Source of the DNA: Promethearchaeota archaeon
GTDB lineage: Archaea; Asgardarchaeota; Lokiarchaeia; Sigyniarchaeales; SOKP01
Assembly: GCA_011364975.1 (NCBI GenBank)
Contig: RDOE01000038.1
Span: 1-32,109 of the forward strand
Reading direction: 5' to 3'
DNA: 32,109 nucleotides
Shown: positions 6,238-19,182 of the stretch, piece after piece
Numbering within the stretch: position 1 is the stretch's first letter
Layout: the number at the start of each line of letters is the position of its first letter
Made by a program: the position numbers and the translations under genes
The notes under the pieces: model-generated
Told to the model about the DNA's origin: nothing
Seen by the model: the letters and a program-made list of their open reading frames with translations, nothing else
Databases searched by the model: none

Positions 6238-7262
6238 CTGTCAATGAGATAAGATTGCTCGAGTCCCTTTATTAAATGGGTTACTATATTATTTAATGGA
6301 ACGTCAATTCCATATGCAGCAGCCAATTCCACAATTTTTCCATTTAAGAAATCAATTTCTGTAGGCTTTTTTGCAATTATATCTTGCAACATGGAATTTT
6401 CATTACCTGCAGTCTGTTCTGCGACAGAAAACATAAGATTAACATATTTCTCTTCTTCGAACTTTAATCCTTGAGTTTCTGCGATAATTAATGCTTCTTT
6501 CACCAGAGCTTCCATTAACATTCTTAAATTTTTAGATTTTAAGAGTTCCCCATTTGTTAGCTTAGTTAATGCCCCAATAACATTTATTCCAATATTTACA
6601 AATGCCTTTTCCCAAGTATACCTAATAATATCATCTACGATTTCTGTTTTTATTTGACCACTTTGGAGCATCTCTTTTAATCGATTCAATGATAATAAAC
6701 CACTCTTTAGTTTTACCTTATTATCGCGGTATTCTTCTGGGAAAGGAAATCCTATTTTAGTAAATCCCGAACCTGTGTGCATGACTACCCCTGGATTTTT
6801 CAAGACCGCCCCATGGGAGGTGACAATTCTCACTAATTTTTCCTTTTTAACATACAATTCTACCAAGTGCTCGTTTCCTATTCCGTTCTGCAGAAGTATT
6901 ATCCAGTTACTTGCTTCGATAAGGTTTTTATAAGCTCTTATTGCTTTTATGGTATCATATGCTTTAGTGGTTATAAAGAGATATTCAAATTTATCTCCCT
7001 TATCTGATGATAATGAATCTTTATAATTACTGTAATTATCAAAGGCTTTAATGTTTTTGAGGGTCAATAATGTATCACCTCTTTGAAGTATTAATCCCCT
7101 TGCATTGATTACATTTACATGAGCGGGTCTTGAGAAAAAAATGATTTCTGTGGTATCATCATTTTTTAGAGTCGATGCCAAATACCCTCCAAATAAACTT
7201 CCGATCGATCCTGCTCCAATTATTCCAATCACCACGGGTTCCATCTCACGAGTACCTCTCAA
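6234..7262 (-). CDS. panE: 2-dehydropantoate 2-reductase (ketopantoate reductase)
   Basis: GAGSIG Rossmann motif, TKAYD, LQNGIG, WEKAFVN, SMLQD and TEIDFLNG. ATG at 7244 is an alternative start. Confidence 0.93.
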   Translation of the reverse strand: MRGTREMEPVVIGIIGAGSIGSLFGGYLASTLKNDDTTEIIFFSRPAHVNVINARGLILQRGDTLLTLKNIKAFDNYSNYKDSLSSDKGDKFEYLFITTKAYDTIKAIRAYKNLIEASNWIILLQNGIGNEHLVELYVKKEKLVRIVTSHGAVLKNPGVVMHTGSGFTKIGFPFPEEYRDNKVKLKSGLLSLNRLKEMLQSGQIKTEIVDDIIRYTWEKAFVNIGINVIGALTKLTNGELLKSKNLRMLMEALVKEALIIAETQGLKFEEEKYVNLMFSVAEQTAGNENSMLQDIIAKKPTEIDFLNGKIVELAAAYGIDVPLNNIVTHLIKGLEQSYLIDS

Positions 7263-7383
7263 AAAGTTCTTGGTTTTCTCCTTTTATCATCAGTATGATA
7301 TCATTATAATCATATTATCTTTCAATTATATTATTTCATCTATTACTACATGAAACCCTCGTTTAATGCAATTTGTTAAATGA

Positions 7384-8250
7384 TTAGAAGAACTTATCCA
7401 AACTCGTTTGACCCTTGTCAAAAGACCCGGATTCTTTCTTAACATCCAATAAGCTGATCTGTTCGGGATCGGTTCGAGGTTTTACTCCTAATTCTTTCAT
7501 CATCATCAAGGAATTCTTCGCAGCATATCCAGAAAAATGATTGTTGAAATAAATTCCAATCTTTTCGACTTTATCTATTACATTATTTATTGAAACCGCC
7601 CATTCCCTTATCTCTTCTTCAGTAAAAAAATAATCAAACCAAATTTTTTTACCGTATCCGTGAAACCTTAGATAAAAAAACTCTGAGTTGGTGATATCCA
7701 TTCTAGGTGGAAGTAATGGTTCAATCACAGCACAATAGGTTAAAGAATTCTTTTTTAGATAATCAAAAATCTTATCATCCATCCAAGATTCATTTCTAAA
7801 TTCAATCGCTAAATAATACCCTTCTGCCTTTAATTCGCTTGGCCAATTTCTTATAAATTCTCTCAACATTCCAAAATGTTCTTCCCTATTAAATGAGGGA
7901 GGAAGTTGAATTAAAAGGCTAAGAAGTTTCTTCGCCTTTATTAATGGATCAATTGATGTAAGAAAATAATCCAGATCGTTTAAGCAAAGATCTACGTCTA
8001 ATTTATGCTCATGCGTTACTTTTTTAGGAATTTTAGCGGTAAAAAGAAAATTATTAGGTGTTTTATCAACCCAGCTTTTTACAACCCATTTTGAGGGAAT
8101 ATTGTAAAACGTAGTATTAATTTCATTCGTATAAAATATTTCCGAATAGTATAACAAGAAATCCTCTTTCTTGAGGGCTTTAGGGTAAAAGGGACCAACC
8201 CATTCATCATATCCCCAACCAGAAGTACCCACCAATATTTTACGTTCCAT
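7384..8250 (-). CDS. DUF72 (YecE-like) TIM-barrel protein
   Basis: GTSGW.Y..W.G.FYP, EINTTFY, QLPPSF, EFR..SW, Y.RFHG and YFNNH. Confidence 0.92.
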   Translation of the reverse strand: MERKILVGTSGWGYDEWVGPFYPKALKKEDFLLYYSEIFYTNEINTTFYNIPSKWVVKSWVDKTPNNFLFTAKIPKKVTHEHKLDVDLCLNDLDYFLTSIDPLIKAKKLLSLLIQLPPSFNREEHFGMLREFIRNWPSELKAEGYYLAIEFRNESWMDDKIFDYLKKNSLTYCAVIEPLLPPRMDITNSEFFYLRFHGYGKKIWFDYFFTEEEIREWAVSINNVIDKVEKIGIYFNNHFSGYAAKNSLMMMKELGVKPRTDPEQISLLDVKKESGSFDKGQTSLDKFF

Positions 8251-8294
8251 AATTTATTTTTATAAAAATGCGCTTTATTTTTTTCTCACAAATT

Positions 8295-8477
8295 TCAATA
8301 CATAGCTTTAGCATCAAAACCCTTAATTATGGGATCTCTTTTCTGAATTATTAATTTTTTTAGTAATTTAAAAATCTTTTCCCTTGTATCCAAATTCTCC
8401 TTTTTAATATGGGACGCAAAAAGCTCTAATTCATCAATAAAATAGATTTCTATTAGACAGAAAAATATAGATATCAT
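8295..8477 (-). CDS. Small hypothetical protein (doubtful)
   Basis: 60-aa ORF with no recognisable motif. Confidence 0.25.
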   Translation of the reverse strand: MISIFFCLIEIYFIDELELFASHIKKENLDTREKIFKLLKKLIIQKRDPIIKGFDAKAMY

Positions 8478-9029: not shown

Positions 9030-9329
9030 AAACACCTCATCACAATTGATGACGTAGAATCAATAGCAGGTAGCGGCCTCGTAAAAGTATGTCAAAAATG
9101 ACTTCGGTCATAATGCTTGATGATACAGGATATGAGTGCTTATAATGACCGCCTCCTTGGTTATTGTAAGGATCCCGCGCCAAGCACGATTGAATGTGCT
9201 CATAGGAACATACTCCCCATATAATGTTATAATAAGGTTTTTTTGTCTCAATATGAGATTGAAACCTCCTTATCAATCCAGAATACACAAGCCTTAGTGC
9301 AAGCAATCTGAATCTTTCCTTGAGTAGAC
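9030..9329 (+). other. Structured pre-23S leader (5' external transcribed spacer)
   Basis: Hairpins at 9098-9111 (C-UUCG-G tetraloop), 9139-9170, 9183-9200 and 9246-9258. Segments 9204-9216 and 9286-9317 pair with the 3' trailer. Confidence 0.7.
9286..9317 (+). other. 5' strand of the 23S processing stem with bulge-helix-bulge (BHB)
   Basis: CACAAGCCTTAGTGC-AAGC-aat-CTGAATCTTT pairs with AAGGGTTCAG-GCTT-aga-GTGCTGAGGTTTGTG (12695-12726). This gives a 4-bp central helix with 3-nt bulges on opposite strands. Confidence 0.88.
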
Positions 9330-12678
<3,349 letters not shown>

Positions 12679-12694
12679 ACTCGAAAGAGGATTC

Positions 12695-12789: not shown

Positions 12790-12961
12790 CTAGAATTACC
12801 AATTTATAATTAATATCCGTTTGAAAAAAGTATTTAATTTGAATATAATAGTTGCAAACAAAAGAATTAAATATCTTTATGAAATATTTTTAAATACTAC
12901 GGCGAATTTTTACCAAATTGGAAATTCCTAAGGAACAACTTTTTAAATTTATGGATTTAAT

Positions 12962-14167
12962 ATGCAGGATTTGGAATTAGACGAGTTTGCGAAGGAATAT
13001 TTACGCTTAGGATTGCGGATCGGTAAACATATTAACGGATATGTTGAATGTTATTACGGTCCCACTGAAATTAAACAAGCTGTTAATATGGAAAAACCAA
13101 AATCTCCCAAACTTCTATTAAGTGATTGCAATAATCTGCTTAATTTATTAACTAAACAAGGGTTTAAGGATAATCGAAAAAATTATTTTAGAAAAACGCT
13201 TAATGCAATTGAAACTTTATTAAAAAAGTTAAATGGAGATAAAATTTCTTATATTGAATTTGTAACAAATCTTTTTGATTTTAAACCTAAATTTTACGAT
13301 GAGAATTACTTTTTTTCTCTTAAATCTGAAGCAGATGAAATATATAGTGGAAAAGGGTTATTGCATGAAAGGATGAATAATTACGCTATTAAACGAAACA
13401 TATCAAAAGAAAAGATAAAAGAGTTTTTTACAAAAGCGATAATTGTTGCTCAAGAGCAAACAAAAGGAATTTTTCATGATCTCCTCCCAGAAAATGAAAA
13501 TGTAACCGTGAATGTAATCAAAGATCAAAGTTGGGGGATGTATAACTGGTATCAAGGAAATTTTCAATCTAAGATAGATATAAATATTAGTGCTAATTAT
13601 TATTGGACTGATATTTTAAGTTTTGCATGCCATGAAGGTTATCCAGGTCATCATACAGAATATGTAGTAAAAGAAAAATTGCTTTTTAGAAAAAAAAACT
13701 ATTTTGAGAATTCGATTAAAATGTTATATACTCCTGAAATGGTAATTTCAGAGGGTATTGGTCAAATAGCTGAAAATGTTTTATTTCTTCCTAAGCAAAG
13801 TATTCTTATATCTTTAGAAAATTTTTGCTTACATCCTGAAATTGAGGATGATTTAGAATTATTAATTAAACAAATTCAGTTAAAAAAGAAATTTAGAGTT
13901 CTCGAAGGTGCTTTAGCTTATTATAAATATAATAATAATTGGAATGATAATGAAATAAGAGAATTCTTGAGACAACTTGAATTAATTACTGAACCTGCAA
14001 TAACATCAATGCTGAAATTTATTTCAGATGAATTATGGGCACCATATGTTTTAAGTTATCAGGGAGAGCGTCTTCTAACTGAAAAATTTGGAAATCATCC
14101 CAATCCTGAATACTTTCAAACGGTTTATTTGGAGAATACTTTACCCTCCGATTTATCCCGAAGATAA
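12962..14167 (+). CDS. DUF885-like zinc metallopeptidase (gluzincin-type)
   Basis: CHEGYPGHH motif with a downstream SEGIG third-ligand segment and a C-terminal Y..SY..G. No signal peptide. Confidence 0.75.
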   Translation: MQDLELDEFAKEYLRLGLRIGKHINGYVECYYGPTEIKQAVNMEKPKSPKLLLSDCNNLLNLLTKQGFKDNRKNYFRKTLNAIETLLKKLNGDKISYIEFVTNLFDFKPKFYDENYFFSLKSEADEIYSGKGLLHERMNNYAIKRNISKEKIKEFFTKAIIVAQEQTKGIFHDLLPENENVTVNVIKDQSWGMYNWYQGNFQSKIDINISANYYWTDILSFACHEGYPGHHTEYVVKEKLLFRKKNYFENSIKMLYTPEMVISEGIGQIAENVLFLPKQSILISLENFCLHPEIEDDLELLIKQIQLKKKFRVLEGALAYYKYNNNWNDNEIREFLRQLELITEPAITSMLKFISDELWAPYVLSYQGERLLTEKFGNHPNPEYFQTVYLENTLPSDLSRR

Positions 14168-14257
14168 AAGATTTTTGTTATTTTTCAATTGATCTTGTAC
14201 AAACAGATAATCTATATTAAGAAAAATAAAAAATTAAGAAACTTCAATTGAAGAAGT

Positions 14258-14290
14258 TTATGGTATAATGCTTCCTCCATTTACTTCCAT
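14258..14290 (-). CDS. Micro-ORF, 10 aa MEVNGGSIIP
   Basis: ATG GAA GTA AAT GGA GGA AGC ATT ATA CCA TAA. GGTGA RBS lies 7 nt upstream (14298-14302). An inverted repeat AAACTTC/GAAGTTT (14239-14259) and T-rich tracts follow the stop. Confidence 0.7.
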   Translation of the reverse strand: MEVNGGSIIP

Positions 14291-14475
14291 AACTTATTCA
14301 CCTAAATATTTTATTCTTGTTTTAATTCCAAAATATTTTTACAAAAAAGAATTTAAACCCCAATTTTTTCCAATTCATGCCTGGTTAAAAAAAATAAAAG
14401 AAAAACCTAAAAGTCTTATTAATTGTTCTATTAAAAATTAAAAAATAAAAAATAGGTATATTCACTTGCGAAGAT

Positions 14476-14508
14476 CTAAGGTATAATTCCTCCACTGCTT
14501 ATTGACAT
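14476..14508 (-). CDS. Micro-ORF, 10 aa MSISSGGIIP
   Basis: ATG TCA ATA AGC AGT GGA GGA ATT ATA CCT TAG. Same length and C-terminal pattern as its neighbours. The RBS is weak; T-rich tracts lie downstream. Confidence 0.62.
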   Translation of the reverse strand: MSISSGGIIP

Positions 14509-14601
14509 AGCTGGTTTTGCTCATTTATTTTCAGAATATGTATTACCTTCAGTTTTAATTCAATAAAAATTTAAAAAATATACCCTAGAAAAGTAATATA
14601 T

Positions 14602-14634
14602 CTAGGGAACTGTTCCACCTGTGTCTGCGGGCAT
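14602..14634 (-). CDS. Micro-ORF, 10 aa MPADTGGTVP
   Basis: ATG CCC GCA GAC ACA GGT GGA ACA GTT CCC TAG. GGTGA RBS lies 7 nt upstream (14642-14646). An inverted repeat CCCTAGA/TCTAGGG (14583-14607) overlaps the stop. The ORF is a GC-rich island in AT-rich DNA. Confidence 0.7.
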   Translation of the reverse strand: MPADTGGTVP

Positions 14635-14814
14635 CCAATTTTCACCCAATATAATTATAATTGAACATTAAAAATCTTGTGTAATAGAATATTTGTAAAG
14701 AGTATAATGAAGTCCAATCTTTTTAGTTTTTTAAAAAGTATACAAAATTATAAATTCCAATTTATCTTATAATAACATTACAATTTTGTAAAGAAATTGT
14801 AATGGTGAAATTTA

Positions 14815-15141
14815 ATGGTACTAATTATTTGGCGTCAAACTCAAAAAATTAAGTCTGATAAATGGGACGAATTAGAAAAACTAGAAAAAAAGTTTTTAGA
14901 ACTAGAAAAGCGCTTAGGCTTTCCCATAGAGACAAAGAAACGGTATCGAGCTCTCTTTGGGCCAGAAGGAGTAAACACATTAATTATAGATTATCAATGG
15001 GACAGTATGGCAAAAATGGAGAAAACATATACGAAAGCATTTTTAGATCCTGAATATCAAAAACTTGCGGAAGAAGCGTTGCCATTGATAGAAGAAAATA
15101 TTTGGGAGATTTTAGTACCTTGGCCTGCATTTCCAGAATAA
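14815..15141 (+). CDS. Small hypothetical protein, probable dimeric alpha-beta barrel (NIPSNAP-like) fold
   Basis: 108 aa with GGTGA RBS at 14804-14808. Alternating beta/alpha pattern with a Y.WDSMA..E segment typical of NIPSNAP-like proteins. Confidence 0.6.
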   Translation: MVLIIWRQTQKIKSDKWDELEKLEKKFLELEKRLGFPIETKKRYRALFGPEGVNTLIIDYQWDSMAKMEKTYTKAFLDPEYQKLAEEALPLIEENIWEILVPWPAFPE

Positions 15142-15307
15142 AATATTTAATATAAATTTCTTAATTTTTTTTTAATTTCTTGCTTATTTTATGATCATTT
15201 CAGCTAGTATCATAAAATTTGAATTGATTAAAAATGTTTAATCAAGTTATTTAATAAAGGATGATAAAAAAGAAAGAAAAAAAGGAATTTATTAATTTTT
15301 AATTATA

Positions 15308-15634
15308 TCATAGTTGTTCAGGCATTTGCAAATTTATAAAGCGCATTGCTTCAGGAGCGGGTAAGTAAGTTCTAATCTGATACGTCATACCTTCAATTTC
15401 TGAAAAGCCTAACATATTTTGTGTGGCATTTTTAATAGCATCTTCAAGTTTTCCTTTTTTAACGTTAGATACAGTAAAGGTATGAGTTCCTTGAGGTGTT
15501 GAATTCACAGCAAATGGAATAACGGTTTCAGAGATCGTGTTATCGGGAGGATACTTTTTCAGTATTTCGAGATACAATTTTCCTGCCTTAGCTTCGTTTC
15601 CCGGAGGATACCAAATTTCCACAACTAAATACAT
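15308..15634 (-). CDS. Small hypothetical protein (ferredoxin-like/dimeric alpha-beta barrel; paralog of 15664-15963)
   Basis: Shares the pattern Y.VV...YP......GK..L....P and F..IEG..Y.I...L...EA...I.L with the adjacent ORF. Confidence 0.7.
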   Translation of the reverse strand: MYLVVEIWYPPGNEAKAGKLYLEILKKYPPDNTISETVIPFAVNSTPQGTHTFTVSNVKKGKLEDAIKNATQNMLGFSEIEGMTYQIRTYLPAPEAMRFINLQMPEQL

Positions 15635-15663
15635 TTTTGAGACATCTTAAATTTTTTTTAAAA

Positions 15664-15963
15664 TTATCCTAAACCAATGATTTTTAGGGCATCTTTGGCC
15701 TCTAAAACGGGATAAACAGTGTATTCATACCCTTCTATATCCTTATATCCTGAGAATCGAGTATATAATGCTTTTATACCTTCAAAATATTTGTTTTCTT
15801 CCGTAATTTCATAAATTGAAAAAAATATGTATTTTCCACCAACTGCGTTAAAAACATGTTCAGTTTTAACATAAGGAGGTAATTTCGCTAACTGTAGGAA
15901 CTTTTTTCCAATTTCAGAAGCTTTATGTCCCGGAAATGATCCGGTTACAACTACATAAGCCAT
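15664..15963 (-). CDS. Small hypothetical protein (paralog of 15308-15634)
   Basis: YVVVTGSFPGHKASEIGKKFL ... YKDIEGYEYTVYPVLEAKDALKIIGL aligns by eye with the downstream ORF. Confidence 0.7.
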   Translation of the reverse strand: MAYVVVTGSFPGHKASEIGKKFLQLAKLPPYVKTEHVFNAVGGKYIFFSIYEITEENKYFEGIKALYTRFSGYKDIEGYEYTVYPVLEAKDALKIIGLG

Positions 15964-16253
15964 TTTTCAAATCAACTTTTATTTACTTCTTTTAATTTAA
16001 TGGATTTCATTTATATACCTAATCAGAATCCTAACAAAAGGAAAATAGGTATATCTTCTTTAAAATGAGGCTTAATTTAAACCTATACATTTTTGTATAT
16101 GAATGTTTCTAGATAAAAAGTATTTAATAATCATAATTAATATAAGATATAACTCTTAATTTGAAATTCGATGATTACTTAGATTTAATTAAACAATAGA
16201 TTGATTTTCAGTTAATTTTAAATATACACACTTTTAACTATTCAAGCAATACT

Positions 16254-17072
16254 ATGAAAGAAATCAATATAAGATATGAAAATGATCCACGTAAAGATAA
16301 TCCAAGATATAATCAATCTGGTTTTTTTTTAAAATTGCAACAGTTTGAAGCCTGGATCTATAGAATGATGGATGTGCGTAATGAACAACAAATAACGATG
16401 CAGTCAAGCTATTTGCCTGAAGTTGCAGAGAAAGAGTTATATATTCAACCAGCTCCCCAGATTTATTGTTTGTATGATTTTGCAGATGAGTTTTTAGAAG
16501 AGGGGGGTATTGAGGTATCTTATAAATCAAATCTTATCCAATTTAAAAAGCTTGATATTAATAACTCAGAAAGGACAAAAGAACATTTTGAAAAAGAAGA
16601 TCAGCAAAAATTAAGTTTTAATAAGAATAAAGAAGAAAAGATTGAAGGAAGTTTTGGTTTATTAATTATTGGATGGGGTACTGCTATCCTTGGAATAGTG
16701 AAAGGAAATGAAATAGAAGAGATAAGTAGGTTTCGCGCCTCTCAATTAGGACGGTATGATTGGAAACGATTTAGTTCCGAGGAGGAATTGGACTGGTGGA
16801 TAAAAAGGGAAAAAAGAGAAGCATATCGAAACATTTGCAGGATAGCAAGTAGTGAATTTCAACCAAGAATAAATGAATTAGATCAAATTATTATTGGCCT
16901 AAGAAAATTAGTCCAAGAAGATAATATAGACTTAACTTGGTTTAACGATCCTGTCCGAGAAAAAATTAATAATATCTTTGAGTTTGAACAAGATTCTGAA
17001 CCCAGCTTGAAGGAATTACTAGTTAAATTTATTGAAAGTCAAAATAATGATGAGCTGAACAAGAAGGAGTAA
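16254..17072 (+). CDS. Divergent aRF1/eRF1 domain-2-containing paralog lacking GGQ
   Basis: FGLLIIGWGTAILGIVKGNEIEEISRF matches YGLIVVGRAESAVGFIRGTQIEIIREF of the aRF1 at 3438-4712. LYDFADEF matches RYHCASEF, and LDQIIIG matches LQGIFIG. Confidence 0.6.
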   Translation: MKEINIRYENDPRKDNPRYNQSGFFLKLQQFEAWIYRMMDVRNEQQITMQSSYLPEVAEKELYIQPAPQIYCLYDFADEFLEEGGIEVSYKSNLIQFKKLDINNSERTKEHFEKEDQQKLSFNKNKEEKIEGSFGLLIIGWGTAILGIVKGNEIEEISRFRASQLGRYDWKRFSSEEELDWWIKREKREAYRNICRIASSEFQPRINELDQIIIGLRKLVQEDNIDLTWFNDPVREKINNIFEFEQDSEPSLKELLVKFIESQNNDELNKKE

Positions 17073-17114
17073 ATTAAAAATAAATAATAATTCCGTTATA
17101 AAAAATTTCTACCC

Positions 17115-17663
17115 TTAATTTCGTTTTTGATACCGTTCGATTGCAATTTCACGCCACTTTTTATTCCAGGCAGGAAATCCACTTTTTACATACCGTTCGT
17201 GTTCTGGGAAATTTTGGGTCACCCAATTAAAAAGCACAAAATATCGTTGAGCACCTGCTTCCTTAGAAAGTTTTTTAGACTTAACTCCTAATTTTCTTAA
17301 GTGAGATACATATCTCCCTTCAATCGCATCTTGAAGTTTTCCTTCAACTATCGCAGGTTCATGCTTTATTCCCACTTCATCAAACCAGTCTCGTACTAAA
17401 TCGAAACAATTACCACGGCAGATTCGTATCGAGTCTGTTTTTTTGTTGAATTTAAGTGCTTTAAGCCCATCCTTAACCATTTTGAGGATATATTCTTTGG
17501 ATTTTCGATCTTCATGGTTTTTCTTATTATAGAGGCCCACAGGCACACTACGAAATATAATATTCCCGGTTTCAACTACATGAAACCCAATAAACGCGTC
17601 TCCGACTAAATCGCCAGTTCCGCTATCGTCTATTTCGATTGTTCGTTTTGTTATTGATTGCAT
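17115..17663 (-). CDS. Hypothetical protein with RNase H(II)-like N-terminal motif
   Basis: IEIDDSGTGDLVG resembles the RNase HII GIDEAGRG strand. GGTGA RBS lies 8 nt before the ATG at 17663. Confidence 0.6.
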   Translation of the reverse strand: MQSITKRTIEIDDSGTGDLVGDAFIGFHVVETGNIIFRSVPVGLYNKKNHEDRKSKEYILKMVKDGLKALKFNKKTDSIRICRGNCFDLVRDWFDEVGIKHEPAIVEGKLQDAIEGRYVSHLRKLGVKSKKLSKEAGAQRYFVLFNWVTQNFPEHERYVKSGFPAWNKKWREIAIERYQKRN

Positions 17664-17966
17664 TAAATGCATCACCTTTTTTCATTTGTTATTTAAAAAT
17701 TAATAATCGTCAATCGTTGAAATCAAATGATTTTTGTCCGATTTTCGTTTTAATCTATTTATATAAAATTATTAACCCTATAAATGTTTTTTGAATAGAT
17801 TTTATAATAATTTTCAATATTTAATCTCTTGAAAAATTTGGTAATCATCCAAATTCAAAAACCTTTCAGAACATTTATATAGAGCATGTTTTGCCCTCTG
17901 ATTTAATTTAAAAAAGCATTCATAAGAAAAACAAATAATGAATATAATTTCTCATTATTGGGAAAT

Positions 17967-17993
17967 TTATGGAATAACCCCTGGCCCTTGCAT
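17967..17993 (-). CDS. Micro-ORF, 8 aa MQGPGVIP (11 aa MFQMQGPGVIP if started at 18002)
   Basis: ATG CAA GGG CCA GGG GTT ATT CCA TAA. GGTGA RBS lies 8 nt upstream (18002-18006). An imperfect inverted repeat at 17946-17967 abuts the stop. Confidence 0.62.
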   Translation of the reverse strand: MQGPGVIP

Positions 17994-18204
17994 TTGAAAC
18001 ATCACCTTTATTTTTGTTAGTATTAAAAAATTTGTTTATATCTATTGAATTAATATAACTTTCTGAAAAAATTGCTCCAGTTTAGAGAATAGAATGAAAT
18101 TTTATCAGCAAAACACGTTTGAACTCGTTCTTTATAATTTTCTTTTTATAAATAGATATAAACTTCGATTTTTTTTCTTTAAAAAAAACACAAAAGAATT
18201 AGAT

Positions 18205-19182
18205 TTAGATATATTTTTGCACAAATTTATTTACATTTTCAAACGCTTTCTTACTTTCTGATAGTTCATATCCCAGATTTTGAAATACATGAACCATATT
18301 CTCATAAACTTCTAATTTTATATCAATTCCAGCAGTTTTTGCTTTCTCTGCTAACATTATCGAGTCATCCAATATAGCTTCTATCCCACCTGCTTGAACG
18401 AGCAGAGGAGGGAGTCTTGTTAAATCAGAAAAAACAGGTGAGATATAAGGATTCTCAAGAGAATAGGTTTGCGCATACGCTAACGCCATTGGTTTTATCC
18501 CTGCAACTAATTCGGGTTCATATTTAGAGTTTATTTCTAAAGATTTTCCACTTCCCGTAAGATCGACCCATGGAGACATTAAAACTGCGGCGGCGGGGAA
18601 TGGCAATTCCAATTCTTTCAACTTTAATAACGTTGCCATAGTTAATCCTCCACCAGCGGACTCGCCACCGATAATGATCTTTTTGGGGTTATATCCTTCT
18701 GAAAGTAGCCACTTATAGGCTTTAACAGAATCATCTAATGCCGCAGGAAAAGGATATTCCGGAGCTAATCGATATTCAATAGTTAAGCAGCGTAAATTGG
18801 TTGCATTTGAAACTAAATAAGGAATCCAACGTCTACTTTCAAGATTTCCCATAATATATCCTCCTCCAAATAAATGGAAAAAGATTTTCTCCTCTTCAGC
18901 TTCAGGTATATAAAGCCATTCAGCGGGAATATCTTCGATATTTATTCTTTCAATTACTATATTCTTAGGAATATACTTATTTCTTTCCATTCCGGTTGAG
19001 TTAGATATATACCTATTAAAGTCTAAAATCGTCTTCCAATCACATTTTCTATTTATAATATCTTCTATAGAAATATTGTGCTGGGAAACAAATTCCTTTG
19101 CTGCATTTTCACTTATTTCGTTAGCCTTCTTTAGTAGTGTCCCCAATTTTTTATGAACTTTAGCTACTTCATTATATGACAT
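18205..19182 (-). CDS. Alpha/beta hydrolase, hormone-sensitive-lipase (HSL/Aes) family
   Basis: YRLAPEYPFPAALDD, GESAGG nucleophile elbow, SPWVDL, ISP and the catalytic His in MVHVFQ. Confidence 0.92.
   Translation of the reverse strand: MSYNEVAKVHKKLGTLLKKANEISENAAKEFVSQHNISIEDIINRKCDWKTILDFNRYISNSTGMERNKYIPKNIVIERINIEDIPAEWLYIPEAEEEKIFFHLFGGGYIMGNLESRRWIPYLVSNATNLRCLTIEYRLAPEYPFPAALDDSVKAYKWLLSEGYNPKKIIIGGESAGGGLTMATLLKLKELELPFPAAAVLMSPWVDLTGSGKSLEINSKYEPELVAGIKPMALAYAQTYSLENPYISPVFSDLTRLPPLLVQAGGIEAILDDSIMLAEKAKTAGIDIKLEVYENMVHVFQNLGYELSESKKAFENVNKFVQKYI

Follow-up and report, generated by a model that had tools for sequence, protein, structure and literature searches.

Mini-Genes of 8-11 Codons Associated With a DUF885-Like Enzyme Gene in an Asgard Archaeon, and a Member Apparently Orphaned by Deletion of Its Partner

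Introduction

The subject of this article is a reading frame of eight codons, encoding MQGPGVIP, on the minus strand of a contig of 32,109 nt (RDOE01000038.1, assembly GCA_011364975.1; hereafter the window) from a Promethearchaeota archaeon of the order Sigyniarchaeales. The frame is designated mini-gene #4, after three similar frames (#1-#3) that form an array in the same window. Comparative analysis indicates that it is a real member of an enzyme-linked mini-gene family rather than a chance frame, that these mini-genes are inherited together with the gene for a ~400-amino-acid (aa) enzyme in one Asgard family (GTDB f1; genera g1 and g12), and that #4 is the cognate, convergent mini-gene of an enzyme paralogue, B, that appears to have been deleted from this genome. 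The best explanation as a whole, and one that we judge probable, is that the family is co-inherited, B was deleted, the frames are translated, and, more tentatively, the peptide is a ligand of the enzyme.

Gene callers miss genes of 8-11 codons, and very few are known to yield a functional free peptide; to our knowledge, no functional free peptide from so short a gene is known in archaea. The genome considered here comprises 3.74 Mb in 200 contigs at 30.6% GC, and relatives of the window proteins are found in Asgard metagenome-assembled genomes.

Mini-Gene #4 and Its Deleted Partner

The features that a first-pass annotation had reported for the MQGPGVIP frame, namely the Shine-Dalgarno (SD) sequence GGTGA, its 8-nt spacing, the frame itself, and a GC-rich patch within an AT-rich spacer, are all confirmed on the minus strand (Table 1). 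The spacer that harbors the frame extends over 529 bp (17676-18204), and GC content reaches 48.1% in the frame compared with 21.9% in the whole spacer and 19.1% in the spacer minus the frame and the relic described below. As in the rest of the family, the SD sequence of #4 lies within 5-9 nt of the start codon, and its length and C-terminal Pro-stop are likewise those of the family. The hairpin said to abut the stop codon is also present, as a 6-bp stem (AATTTC/GAAATT) with a 58-nt fold of -6.7 kcal/mol (z -1.44).

A tblastn comparison of the window with the 401-aa protein that it encodes (paralogue A) gave a second match at 17828-17908 (+), covering residues 373-399 with 63% identity (E 2.2e-5). 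The DNA here also aligns with the 401-aa gene, at its 3' end, and stop codons lie just 5' of its translation, LEKFGNHPNSKTFQNIYIEHVLPSDLI, which is here called the relic of paralogue B. A metagenome contig (L082, the sister contig) that is ~96% identical to the window over the end of the 23S rRNA gene and the 401-aa gene carries three paralogues, A, B, and C (63% identity between A and B, 36% between A and C). Positions 7067-8368 of the sister contig have no counterpart in the window, and because the break falls between two TTGAAAA(A)T copies, a clean deletion of ~1.3 kb between these direct repeats appears to have cut B to its last 27 codons, orphaning #4. The distance from the relic stop to #4 is 55 nt in the window (17911 to 17967), and that from intact B to #4 is 56 nt in the sister contig. 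It is as the cognate convergent mini-gene of a deleted paralogue, and not as the independent copy first proposed, that #4 is best read from these sequences.

The expectation of conservation at the syntenic position is borne out, the frame being perfectly kept in the sister contig: none of its 27 positions has changed, while window and sister differ at 43 of 325 aligned columns, or at 14.4% outside the frame (P = 0.015). AAAGGTGAT is also kept in the sister contig, and the neighboring spacer of #4 has changed at 3 of 7 positions.

Paralogue C is likewise missing from the window, with a junction between 14393 and 14517. Because both B and C are deleted relative to the sister contig, the array #1-#3 is interpreted, from this comparison of sequences, as the collapsed remainder of a three-paralogue cluster. 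Mini-gene #3 is convergent with intact paralogue A, 90 nt past its stop, in the same geometry as #4 relative to the relic, and it differs from its sister copy by one conservative change (I to V). In the sister contig, MPADTGGTVP lies 209 nt upstream of C, and MPVQGGVIPK followed by a stop lies just downstream of C. Frame #2 is probably a decaying copy, since it lacks an SD sequence and a fold 3' of its stop, and nothing in the sister contig aligns with it; it may, with some uncertainty, have descended from the downstream frame of C. The common G-x-I-P-stop ending noted in the first-pass annotation stands for #4 (GVIP) and #2 (GIIP) and fails for #1 (GTVP) and #3 (SIIP). Between #2 and #3, at 14377-14388 (+), ATGCCTGGTTAA encodes MPG-stop and is one base off the canonical ATGCCTGGTCAA; it has no SD sequence, is not conserved in the sister contig, and possibly reflects chance. 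Most sampled words of 12900-18300 were found in contigs of 19 DNA runs from six studies.

With B gone, #4 could be a functionless leftover of a real family, its partner having been lost too recently for decay, an alternative that we consider somewhat unlikely. The reduction of B to 27 codons is consistent with it, as are a TATA-like box that is degenerate relative to that of the sister, a weak hairpin, and the existence of decayed copies at the locus, such as #2. Set against this, the SD sequence, ATG, all codons, and stop of #4 are intact; the frame is identical to its sister while the flanks differ by 14%, a conservation that may nonetheless predate the deletion; and paralogue A remains 3.8 kb away. 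Given its 63% identity to B, A might conceivably be the enzyme on which #4 acts in this genome.

Table 1. Coordinates of the mini-genes, their signals, and the enzyme paralogues (positions are those of the window unless the sister contig L082 or another locus is named).
Feature	Positions	Strand	Sequence or remarks
Mini-gene #4	17993-17967	minus	ATG CAA GGG CCA GGG GTT ATT CCA TAA, MQGPGVIP; 8 codons and stop
SD sequence of #4	18006-18002	minus	GGTGA; 8-nt spacer tgtttcaa, then ATG
TATA-like box of #4	18052-18060	minus	AGTTATATT, degenerate; 67 nt 5' of ATG
Hairpin of #4	17966-17946	minus	AATTTC-N10-GAAATT directly 3' of stop, then T-runs
Relic of paralogue B	17828-17911	plus	LEKFGNHPNSKTFQNIYIEHVLPSDLI, 27 codons and stop; convergent with #4
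Deletion junction	17829-17837	plus	TTGAAAAAT; two direct copies ~1.3 kb apart in L082
Paralogue A	12962-14167	plus	401 aa, DUF885-like, predicted gluzincin fold; H224-E-G-Y-P-G-H-H231
Mini-gene #3	14290-14258	minus	MEVNGGSIIP; SD AGGTGA; GGTTTAAAT box at -69
Frame #2	14508-14476	minus	MSISSGGIIP
Mini-gene #1	14634-14602	minus	MPADTGGTVP; SD GGGTGA; identical in L082
L082 paralogue A	1498-2697	plus	Convergent MEVNGGSVIP
L082 paralogue B	7234-8451	plus	Intact, 405 aa; convergent MQGPGVIP at 8533-8507
L082 paralogue C		minus	Split into 248- and 146-aa pieces
MPG[TC]A[DN]xxP frame, L212	3002-3031
MPG[TC]A[DN]xxP frame, L213	3057-3086
MPG[TC]A[DN]xxP frame, L215	2996-3025

Linkage of the Mini-Genes to the Enzyme Gene

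The suspicion that #4 is a true fourth member and that the family extends beyond one local tandem duplication is upheld by comparison with related genomes. A 30-nt pattern, ATGCCNGG-N16-CCNTAA, was scanned in 41 genomes of the genus and gave 88 hits in 16 of them, compared with 2 hits for a reversed control and 6 for a pattern two bases too long. For 59 of the 88 hits, a match to the 401-aa family stands at a distance of 96-946 nt, and a hit is found within 1.5 kb of 41 of the 54 full-length enzyme matches. The enzyme is also present in 14 of the 16 pattern-bearing genomes; three genomes have the enzyme and lack the pattern, namely the present one (G000), which has variant peptides and 0 hits to this canonical pattern, and G010 and G020, the enzyme of which belongs to a clade devoid of mini-genes. 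Up to 18 frames and 10 enzyme copies occur in a single genome (G005). The further proposal that the family is spread through the present genome was not substantiated, as only seven small frames with an SD sequence and ATG end in [IV]P; three of these are #1, #3, and #4, and the other four are unrelated.

The association holds for orientation and phylogeny as well. At 9 of 10 loci that carry an orthologue of at least 49%, a convergent frame lies 5-79 nt past the enzyme stop, and three additional loci likewise have a convergent frame, giving an overall range of 5-90 nt past the stop, in which the 5-nt spacing (L129) probably stems from a misplaced gene end. A maximum-likelihood tree of 41 enzymes, built without duplicates, partial matches, L128 (which has one in-frame TAG), and the split paralogue C, contains three clades with 100/100 support. 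Clade I is accompanied by codirectional mini-genes of the MPG type in 19 of 20 cases (the 20th has MFHSGEVVP), clade II, to which A and B belong, by convergent mini-genes in 12 of 13 (in the 13th case, the contig stops 280 nt beyond the gene), and clade III by no mini-gene in all eight. Through the relic of B, #4 has the convergent orientation and the 5-90 nt distance from the enzyme stop that characterize clade II, and it occupies the position at which its enzyme clade always has such a frame. In five paralogue islands the surrounding genes are unrelated housekeeping genes, so the cassette appears to be self-contained.

A subclass of frames, MPG[TC]A[DN]xxP (L210-L215), does not stand beside the 401-aa family; in four of six fetched loci it lies ~220 nt upstream of a major facilitator superfamily (MFS) transporter gene, and it has a conserved start region, aattgaggtaaggctaaa, and a post-stop hairpin, TTCTCCCGC...GCGGGAAAA. 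Some clade III enzyme genes (L057, L058, L092) are followed by a radical-SAM-like open reading frame (ORF) with the motif CxxxCxxC, starting MKINYREAKSI...

Sequence Features and Translation of the Mini-Genes

The family pattern, as defined in this analysis, is M-P-[GH]-x(4-6)-[VIL]-P-stop, with 8-11 codons. Its codirectional type, found 3' of 401-aa paralogues in other genomes of the genus, consists of 9-codon frames of the form M-P-G-[QEHRD]-x-[GDN]-[ITA]-x-P-stop, often arranged in tandem sets of 2-3 that are spaced ~200 nt apart. Frames of the convergent clade have 8-11 codons and include MPHAGDAVP, MPHSPNTVP, MPHGPGGTVIP, MPIEGGGTTVP, MPHGNGNIIP, LPHGGPVVP, MPHSGNVVP, MPGDLGPILP, and MHVAQEPVLP (L118); #3 and #4 fit a looser pattern. 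As #4, #3, and L118 all lack proline at position 2 (P2), the P2 rule seems to be relaxed in this clade. A short perfect hairpin starting right 3' of the stop is a family feature of the convergent members, which the #4 hairpin resembles in position and form.

A scan built on a motif influences its own counts in part; this selection is weakest in the counts of the 30-nt pattern above and of [ATG]TGCCNGG sites. Among 36 unselected sites of the latter kind at 30 loci, 29 are followed by Pro9 and a stop at codon 10, and three further sites by Pro9 and one extra residue. The family scan returned 44 distinct loci with lengths of 9 (36 loci), 10 (6), and 11 codons (2), at least one of which is apparently a false positive (VPNFCLIRVSP, L092). 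The final Pro of the 36 nine-codon members is encoded by CCA (17), CCT (8), CCC (6), or CCG (5), Gly3 in 31 nine-codon members by GGT (22), GGG (4), GGC (3), or GGA (2), and the stop across the 44 loci is TAA (40) or TAG (4). The middle positions of the frames are rich in G, T, I, V, D, A, and N; lysine occupies 1 of 251 of them in a genome of 31% GC, and aromatic residues are nearly absent. A [GA][GT]TT[TA]A[TA]A[TA] box is present within 170 nt upstream of 43 of 52 scan hits, compared with 19% of random windows, its position peaking at about -122 in the codirectional and about -78 in the convergent type. The loose pattern GGNGGN-N(3-6)-RTHCCNTAR gave counts at the level of its reversed control in the 41 genomes of the genus, and therefore the C-terminal motif alone does not define the family. 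The possession of their own SD sequence at 5-9 nt and their own TATA-like box, the near-fixed length, the retention of P2, G3, and the last Pro through synonymous changes, and the biased composition strongly suggest that the frames are translated.

The conserved unit might instead be an RNA element at the enzyme gene's 3' end (a small RNA or a bidirectional terminator), in which the frame is incidental. Most members do have a post-stop hairpin and T-runs, the convergent-type element abuts the 3' end of the enzyme gene, and the box positions imply a 5' leader of ~45-90 nt. This alternative is nevertheless highly improbable, as Pro and Gly codons vary synonymously while the residues are kept, and as a fixed frame length is combined with a freely varying middle, an SD sequence at the right spacing, and a strong amino-acid bias. 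One peptide type is found both codirectional and convergent with the enzyme gene, and since both orientations occur, antisense pairing with the enzyme mRNA cannot be the function that they share.

A second alternative concerns the gene for a 186-aa protein that follows #4 on the minus strand. As the first-pass annotation had observed, #4 (17994-18009) and this gene (17664-17679) do share AAAGGTGATG-N6-ATGCAA as their initiation region, and AAAGGTGATG-N6-ATG occurs only twice in the 3.74-Mb genome, at these two starts and 330 nt apart; in the sister contig the two regions agree less closely. A regulatory leader or upstream ORF, at which ribosomes pausing at Pro-stop would control the next gene on the strand, would fit this common start region, the position of the MFS-linked subclass ~220 nt upstream of its gene, and the fact that a C-terminal Pro before the stop slows termination. 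As an account of #4 it is scarcely credible, and both the leader ORF of 17115-17663 suggested earlier and an attenuation leader of the 186-aa gene were rejected: 303 nt with T-runs separate the #4 stop from the ATG at 17663, the 405-aa B intervenes on the opposite strand in the sister contig, and no such frame was found within 1.5 kb at any of 19 loci that hold orthologues of the 186-aa gene. Enzyme-linked members, moreover, sit downstream of, or convergent with, their partner.

The 186-aa protein itself (17115-17663, minus) has no family assigned to it and is present in 38 of 41 genomes searched in the order, usually in two copies each; the second copy in this genome (G000:C76:5962-6495) has an in-frame TAA.

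The Partner Protein

The 401-aa partner is predicted from its structural model to have a DUF885/M32/ACE-type gluzincin fold. The AlphaFold2 model has a mean predicted local distance difference test (pLDDT) of 93.8 and a predicted template modeling (pTM) score of 0.91. Its top Foldseek matches are the DUF885 structures 3o0y_A (E 7.3e-6), 3iuk_A (1.7e-5), and 3u24 (1.4e-4), followed by M32 carboxypeptidases, ACE/ACE2, M3 oligopeptidases, and MATCAP, with query-normalized TM-scores of 0.43-0.50; the ACE-IPP complex is among the fold matches. The nearest ESM Atlas clusters are named DUF885-like at 0.98, which serves as a lead only. The PF05960 (DUF885) profile matches below threshold (E 0.07, 13.2 bits vs a cut-off of 32.4, residues 218-248 only), and a precomputed PF05960 match is found in one of the 120 database relatives listed out of 259 found. 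Searches of PDB chains with the 401-aa sequence and with a 24-row profile gave nothing meaningful, and NCBIfam gave nothing. All named relatives among those listed carry the designation "hypothetical protein."

Residues H224, E225, H230, H231, E249, and E264 are invariant in 24 sequences that are 36-54% identical to the window protein, which argues for a probable working active site. The motif reads HExYPGHH, with HExxxxHH rather than HExxH spacing, and would form a putative metal-binding site. Homologues at 24-34% identity with HE[GA]YPGHH are common in Chloroflexota, Actinomycetota, Alphaproteobacteria, and others. In a passage of PMC12572635, DUF885 is assigned to the MA clan.

Proposed Role of the Peptide

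A tentative but possible role for the peptide is that of a dedicated ligand of the neighboring enzyme, acting either as a substrate or as a slowly cleaved competitive regulator. The peptide would be made and released whole. Methionine aminopeptidase (MetAP) removes Met before Pro, and Pro at both ends of a peptide resists exopeptidases; in canonical members, MetAP would thus leave a free peptide of 7-10 residues, in which the hydrophobic-Pro C-terminus, together with the N-terminal Pro, would confer exopeptidase resistance. Enzymes with this fold close around oligopeptides of roughly such a length and recognize the C-terminus of the substrate, and hydrophobic-Pro-ending peptides are classical tight ligands of ACE-type enzymes. 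In its cognate oligopeptidase-like enzyme, the peptide may accordingly be pictured as docking with its C-terminus inside the closed channel for substrates, where it would be a dedicated substrate or a slowly cleaved competitive regulator, in the manner of C-terminal-Pro peptides on ACE-type enzymes. A broader and more doubtful proposal is that these genes form a peptide-peptidase cassette that diversifies, one genome holding as many as ~10 enzymes and ~18 peptides, and in which free nonapeptides would partner ACE/M32-like oligopeptidases in an intra- or intercellular signaling or regulation system.

The peptides could also be minimal precursors resembling peptides made by the ribosome and modified after translation (RiPPs), or signal precursors, that the enzyme trims or cyclizes to give a product acting extracellularly or on another target, as in cassette systems whose short peptides have diversified. 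A hypervariable middle between fixed ends would suit such a role, as would the 18 frames and 10 enzymes of G005, the tandem arrays of 2-3 frames behind one enzyme gene, and the proximity of a related subclass to MFS transporter genes. We nevertheless regard it as unlikely, because there is no leader or signal sequence within 8-11 residues, and because no modifying enzyme, RiPP recognition element, or transporter recurs at the enzyme-linked cassettes, where the neighbors in five islands are housekeeping genes; radical-SAM-like genes stand only behind enzymes of the clade that lacks mini-genes. Gluzincins with this fold are known as hydrolases, which also counts against such maturation. A canonical RiPP precursor in particular was rejected, since 8-11 residues in all leave it without leader and core, among housekeeping neighbors.

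Several observations weigh against the preferred account, in which #4 belongs to a family of peptide genes serving a neighboring enzyme. With eight codons ending VIP-TAA, #4 is the shortest family member seen, and it begins M-Q-G rather than with the canonical P2-G3; P2 is also missing in #3 (M-E-V) and in L118 (M-H-V), which belong to the same enzyme clade. Its hairpin alone is not distinctive, 20 of 200 shuffles folding equally well, and its TATA-like box, where the corresponding position of the sister contig has TTTATAT, is degenerate by that comparison and falls outside the strict box pattern given above. The deletion history rests on one sister contig and one assembly, and with its partner gene gone, #4 may be functionless here. 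As for the linkage, related genomes are not independent, and the counts therefore show association rather than its strength and overstate the support. Twenty-nine of the 88 pattern hits have no listed enzyme neighbor, some of them having internal stops, some lying within ~1 kb of a contig end, and some belonging to the MFS-linked subclass; these enzyme-free hits imply that the peptide may have a role without this enzyme. Conversely, no family-like frame was found within 500 nt downstream of enzyme homologues in 39 bacterial loci, and these loci and clade III suggest that the enzyme works without a peptide gene. Nor was a family-like frame found at distant Asgard homologues in other GTDB families (L094-L111).

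Comparison With Known Systems

The full-text literature searches made here returned no description of these mini-genes or of DUF885 function. The mini-gene family thus appears to be previously undescribed, while a gene-encoded mini-peptide beside its enzyme is a known kind of arrangement. The closest in size is MccA, the 7-codon precursor gene of microcin C, which likewise stands on its own, has under 12 codons, a strong SD sequence, and a post-stop hairpin, and yields a leaderless peptide that is used whole. MccA must end in Asn, however, and is adenylated by the adjacent ThiF-like MccB, whereas the present peptides end in [VIL]-Pro, have a gluzincin-fold partner, and occur in an archaeal host. 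A microcin C-type heptapeptide was accordingly discarded, the C-terminus being Pro and no ThiF-like gene being present among the neighbors scanned in the window and five paralogue islands. Biarylitide precursors (5-codon bytA with a cytochrome P450) also pair a minimal precursor gene with one enzyme gene dedicated to it, but that enzyme is an oxidative cross-linker acting on an aromatic MxYxH motif, whereas here aromatic residues are nearly absent and the partner is hydrolase-like.

Rap-Phr and other RRNPP systems of Firmicutes resemble the present cassettes in having many paralogous copies of a ~400-aa helical protein with a short peptide gene that has its own promoter and a hypervariable core. 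They differ in that the Phr pre-peptide, of ~40 aa, carries a signal sequence and leaves the cell before being re-imported, compared with a product of 8-11 aa here, and in that the receptor there consists of tetratricopeptide repeats, whereas the partner here has an invariant metallopeptidase motif. The DUF885 (PF05960), M32, and ACE group shares with the partner its modeled fold and a motif of the HE..H..E type, and its channel takes oligopeptides of about this size, but the Pfam score is far below threshold and the partner is ~150 residues shorter than the solved DUF885 proteins. We know of no DUF885/M32/ACE-type family with a gene-encoded cognate peptide. The attenuation leaders of erm, cat, and tna are similar in being very short SD-bearing frames with an adjacent hairpin and, as in TnaC, a Pro before the stop; they lie upstream in the transcript of the gene that they regulate, whereas the present frames follow their partner or converge with it and are served by a promoter-like box of their own.

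Other Features of the Window

An archaeal 23S rRNA gene occupies 9328-12681 (+), where the match spans 3354 nt compared with a model of 2987 positions, so that an insertion or intron is possible. An Rfam search of the whole window gave only the 23S rRNA, with no 16S or 5S gene; no tRNA was found in the window, and a scan for sigma-70 promoters and intrinsic terminators is uninformative in an archaeal host. Positions 15174-15996 have no counterpart in the ~96%-identical sister contig and contain two ORFs (15308-15634 and 15664-15963; 108 and 99 aa) with no family match. A 272-aa ORF at 16254-17072 (+) is weakly similar to the middle domain of aRF1/eRF1 (TIGR03676, E 3.7e-7, 29 bits vs a cut-off of 235; Pfam eRF1_2, E 3.5e-4), and the sister contig has a 300-aa version of it.

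Significance

Position, copy number, and phylogeny link the mini-gene family to an uncharacterized branch of DUF885 and the MA clan. For annotation, this suggests reading the GC-rich patches of such AT-rich spacers as genes, whose presence can mark recently deleted paralogues. If the peptides are indeed ligands of the neighboring enzymes, they would provide the first candidate substrate for DUF885-like proteins, and the cassette could constitute a peptide-peptidase system without described counterpart in archaea or bacteria, with genes among the shortest known. Asgard archaea are the closest prokaryotic relatives of eukaryotes, and such a system would give them a gene-encoded oligopeptide system that is testable with synthetic peptides and recombinant enzyme.

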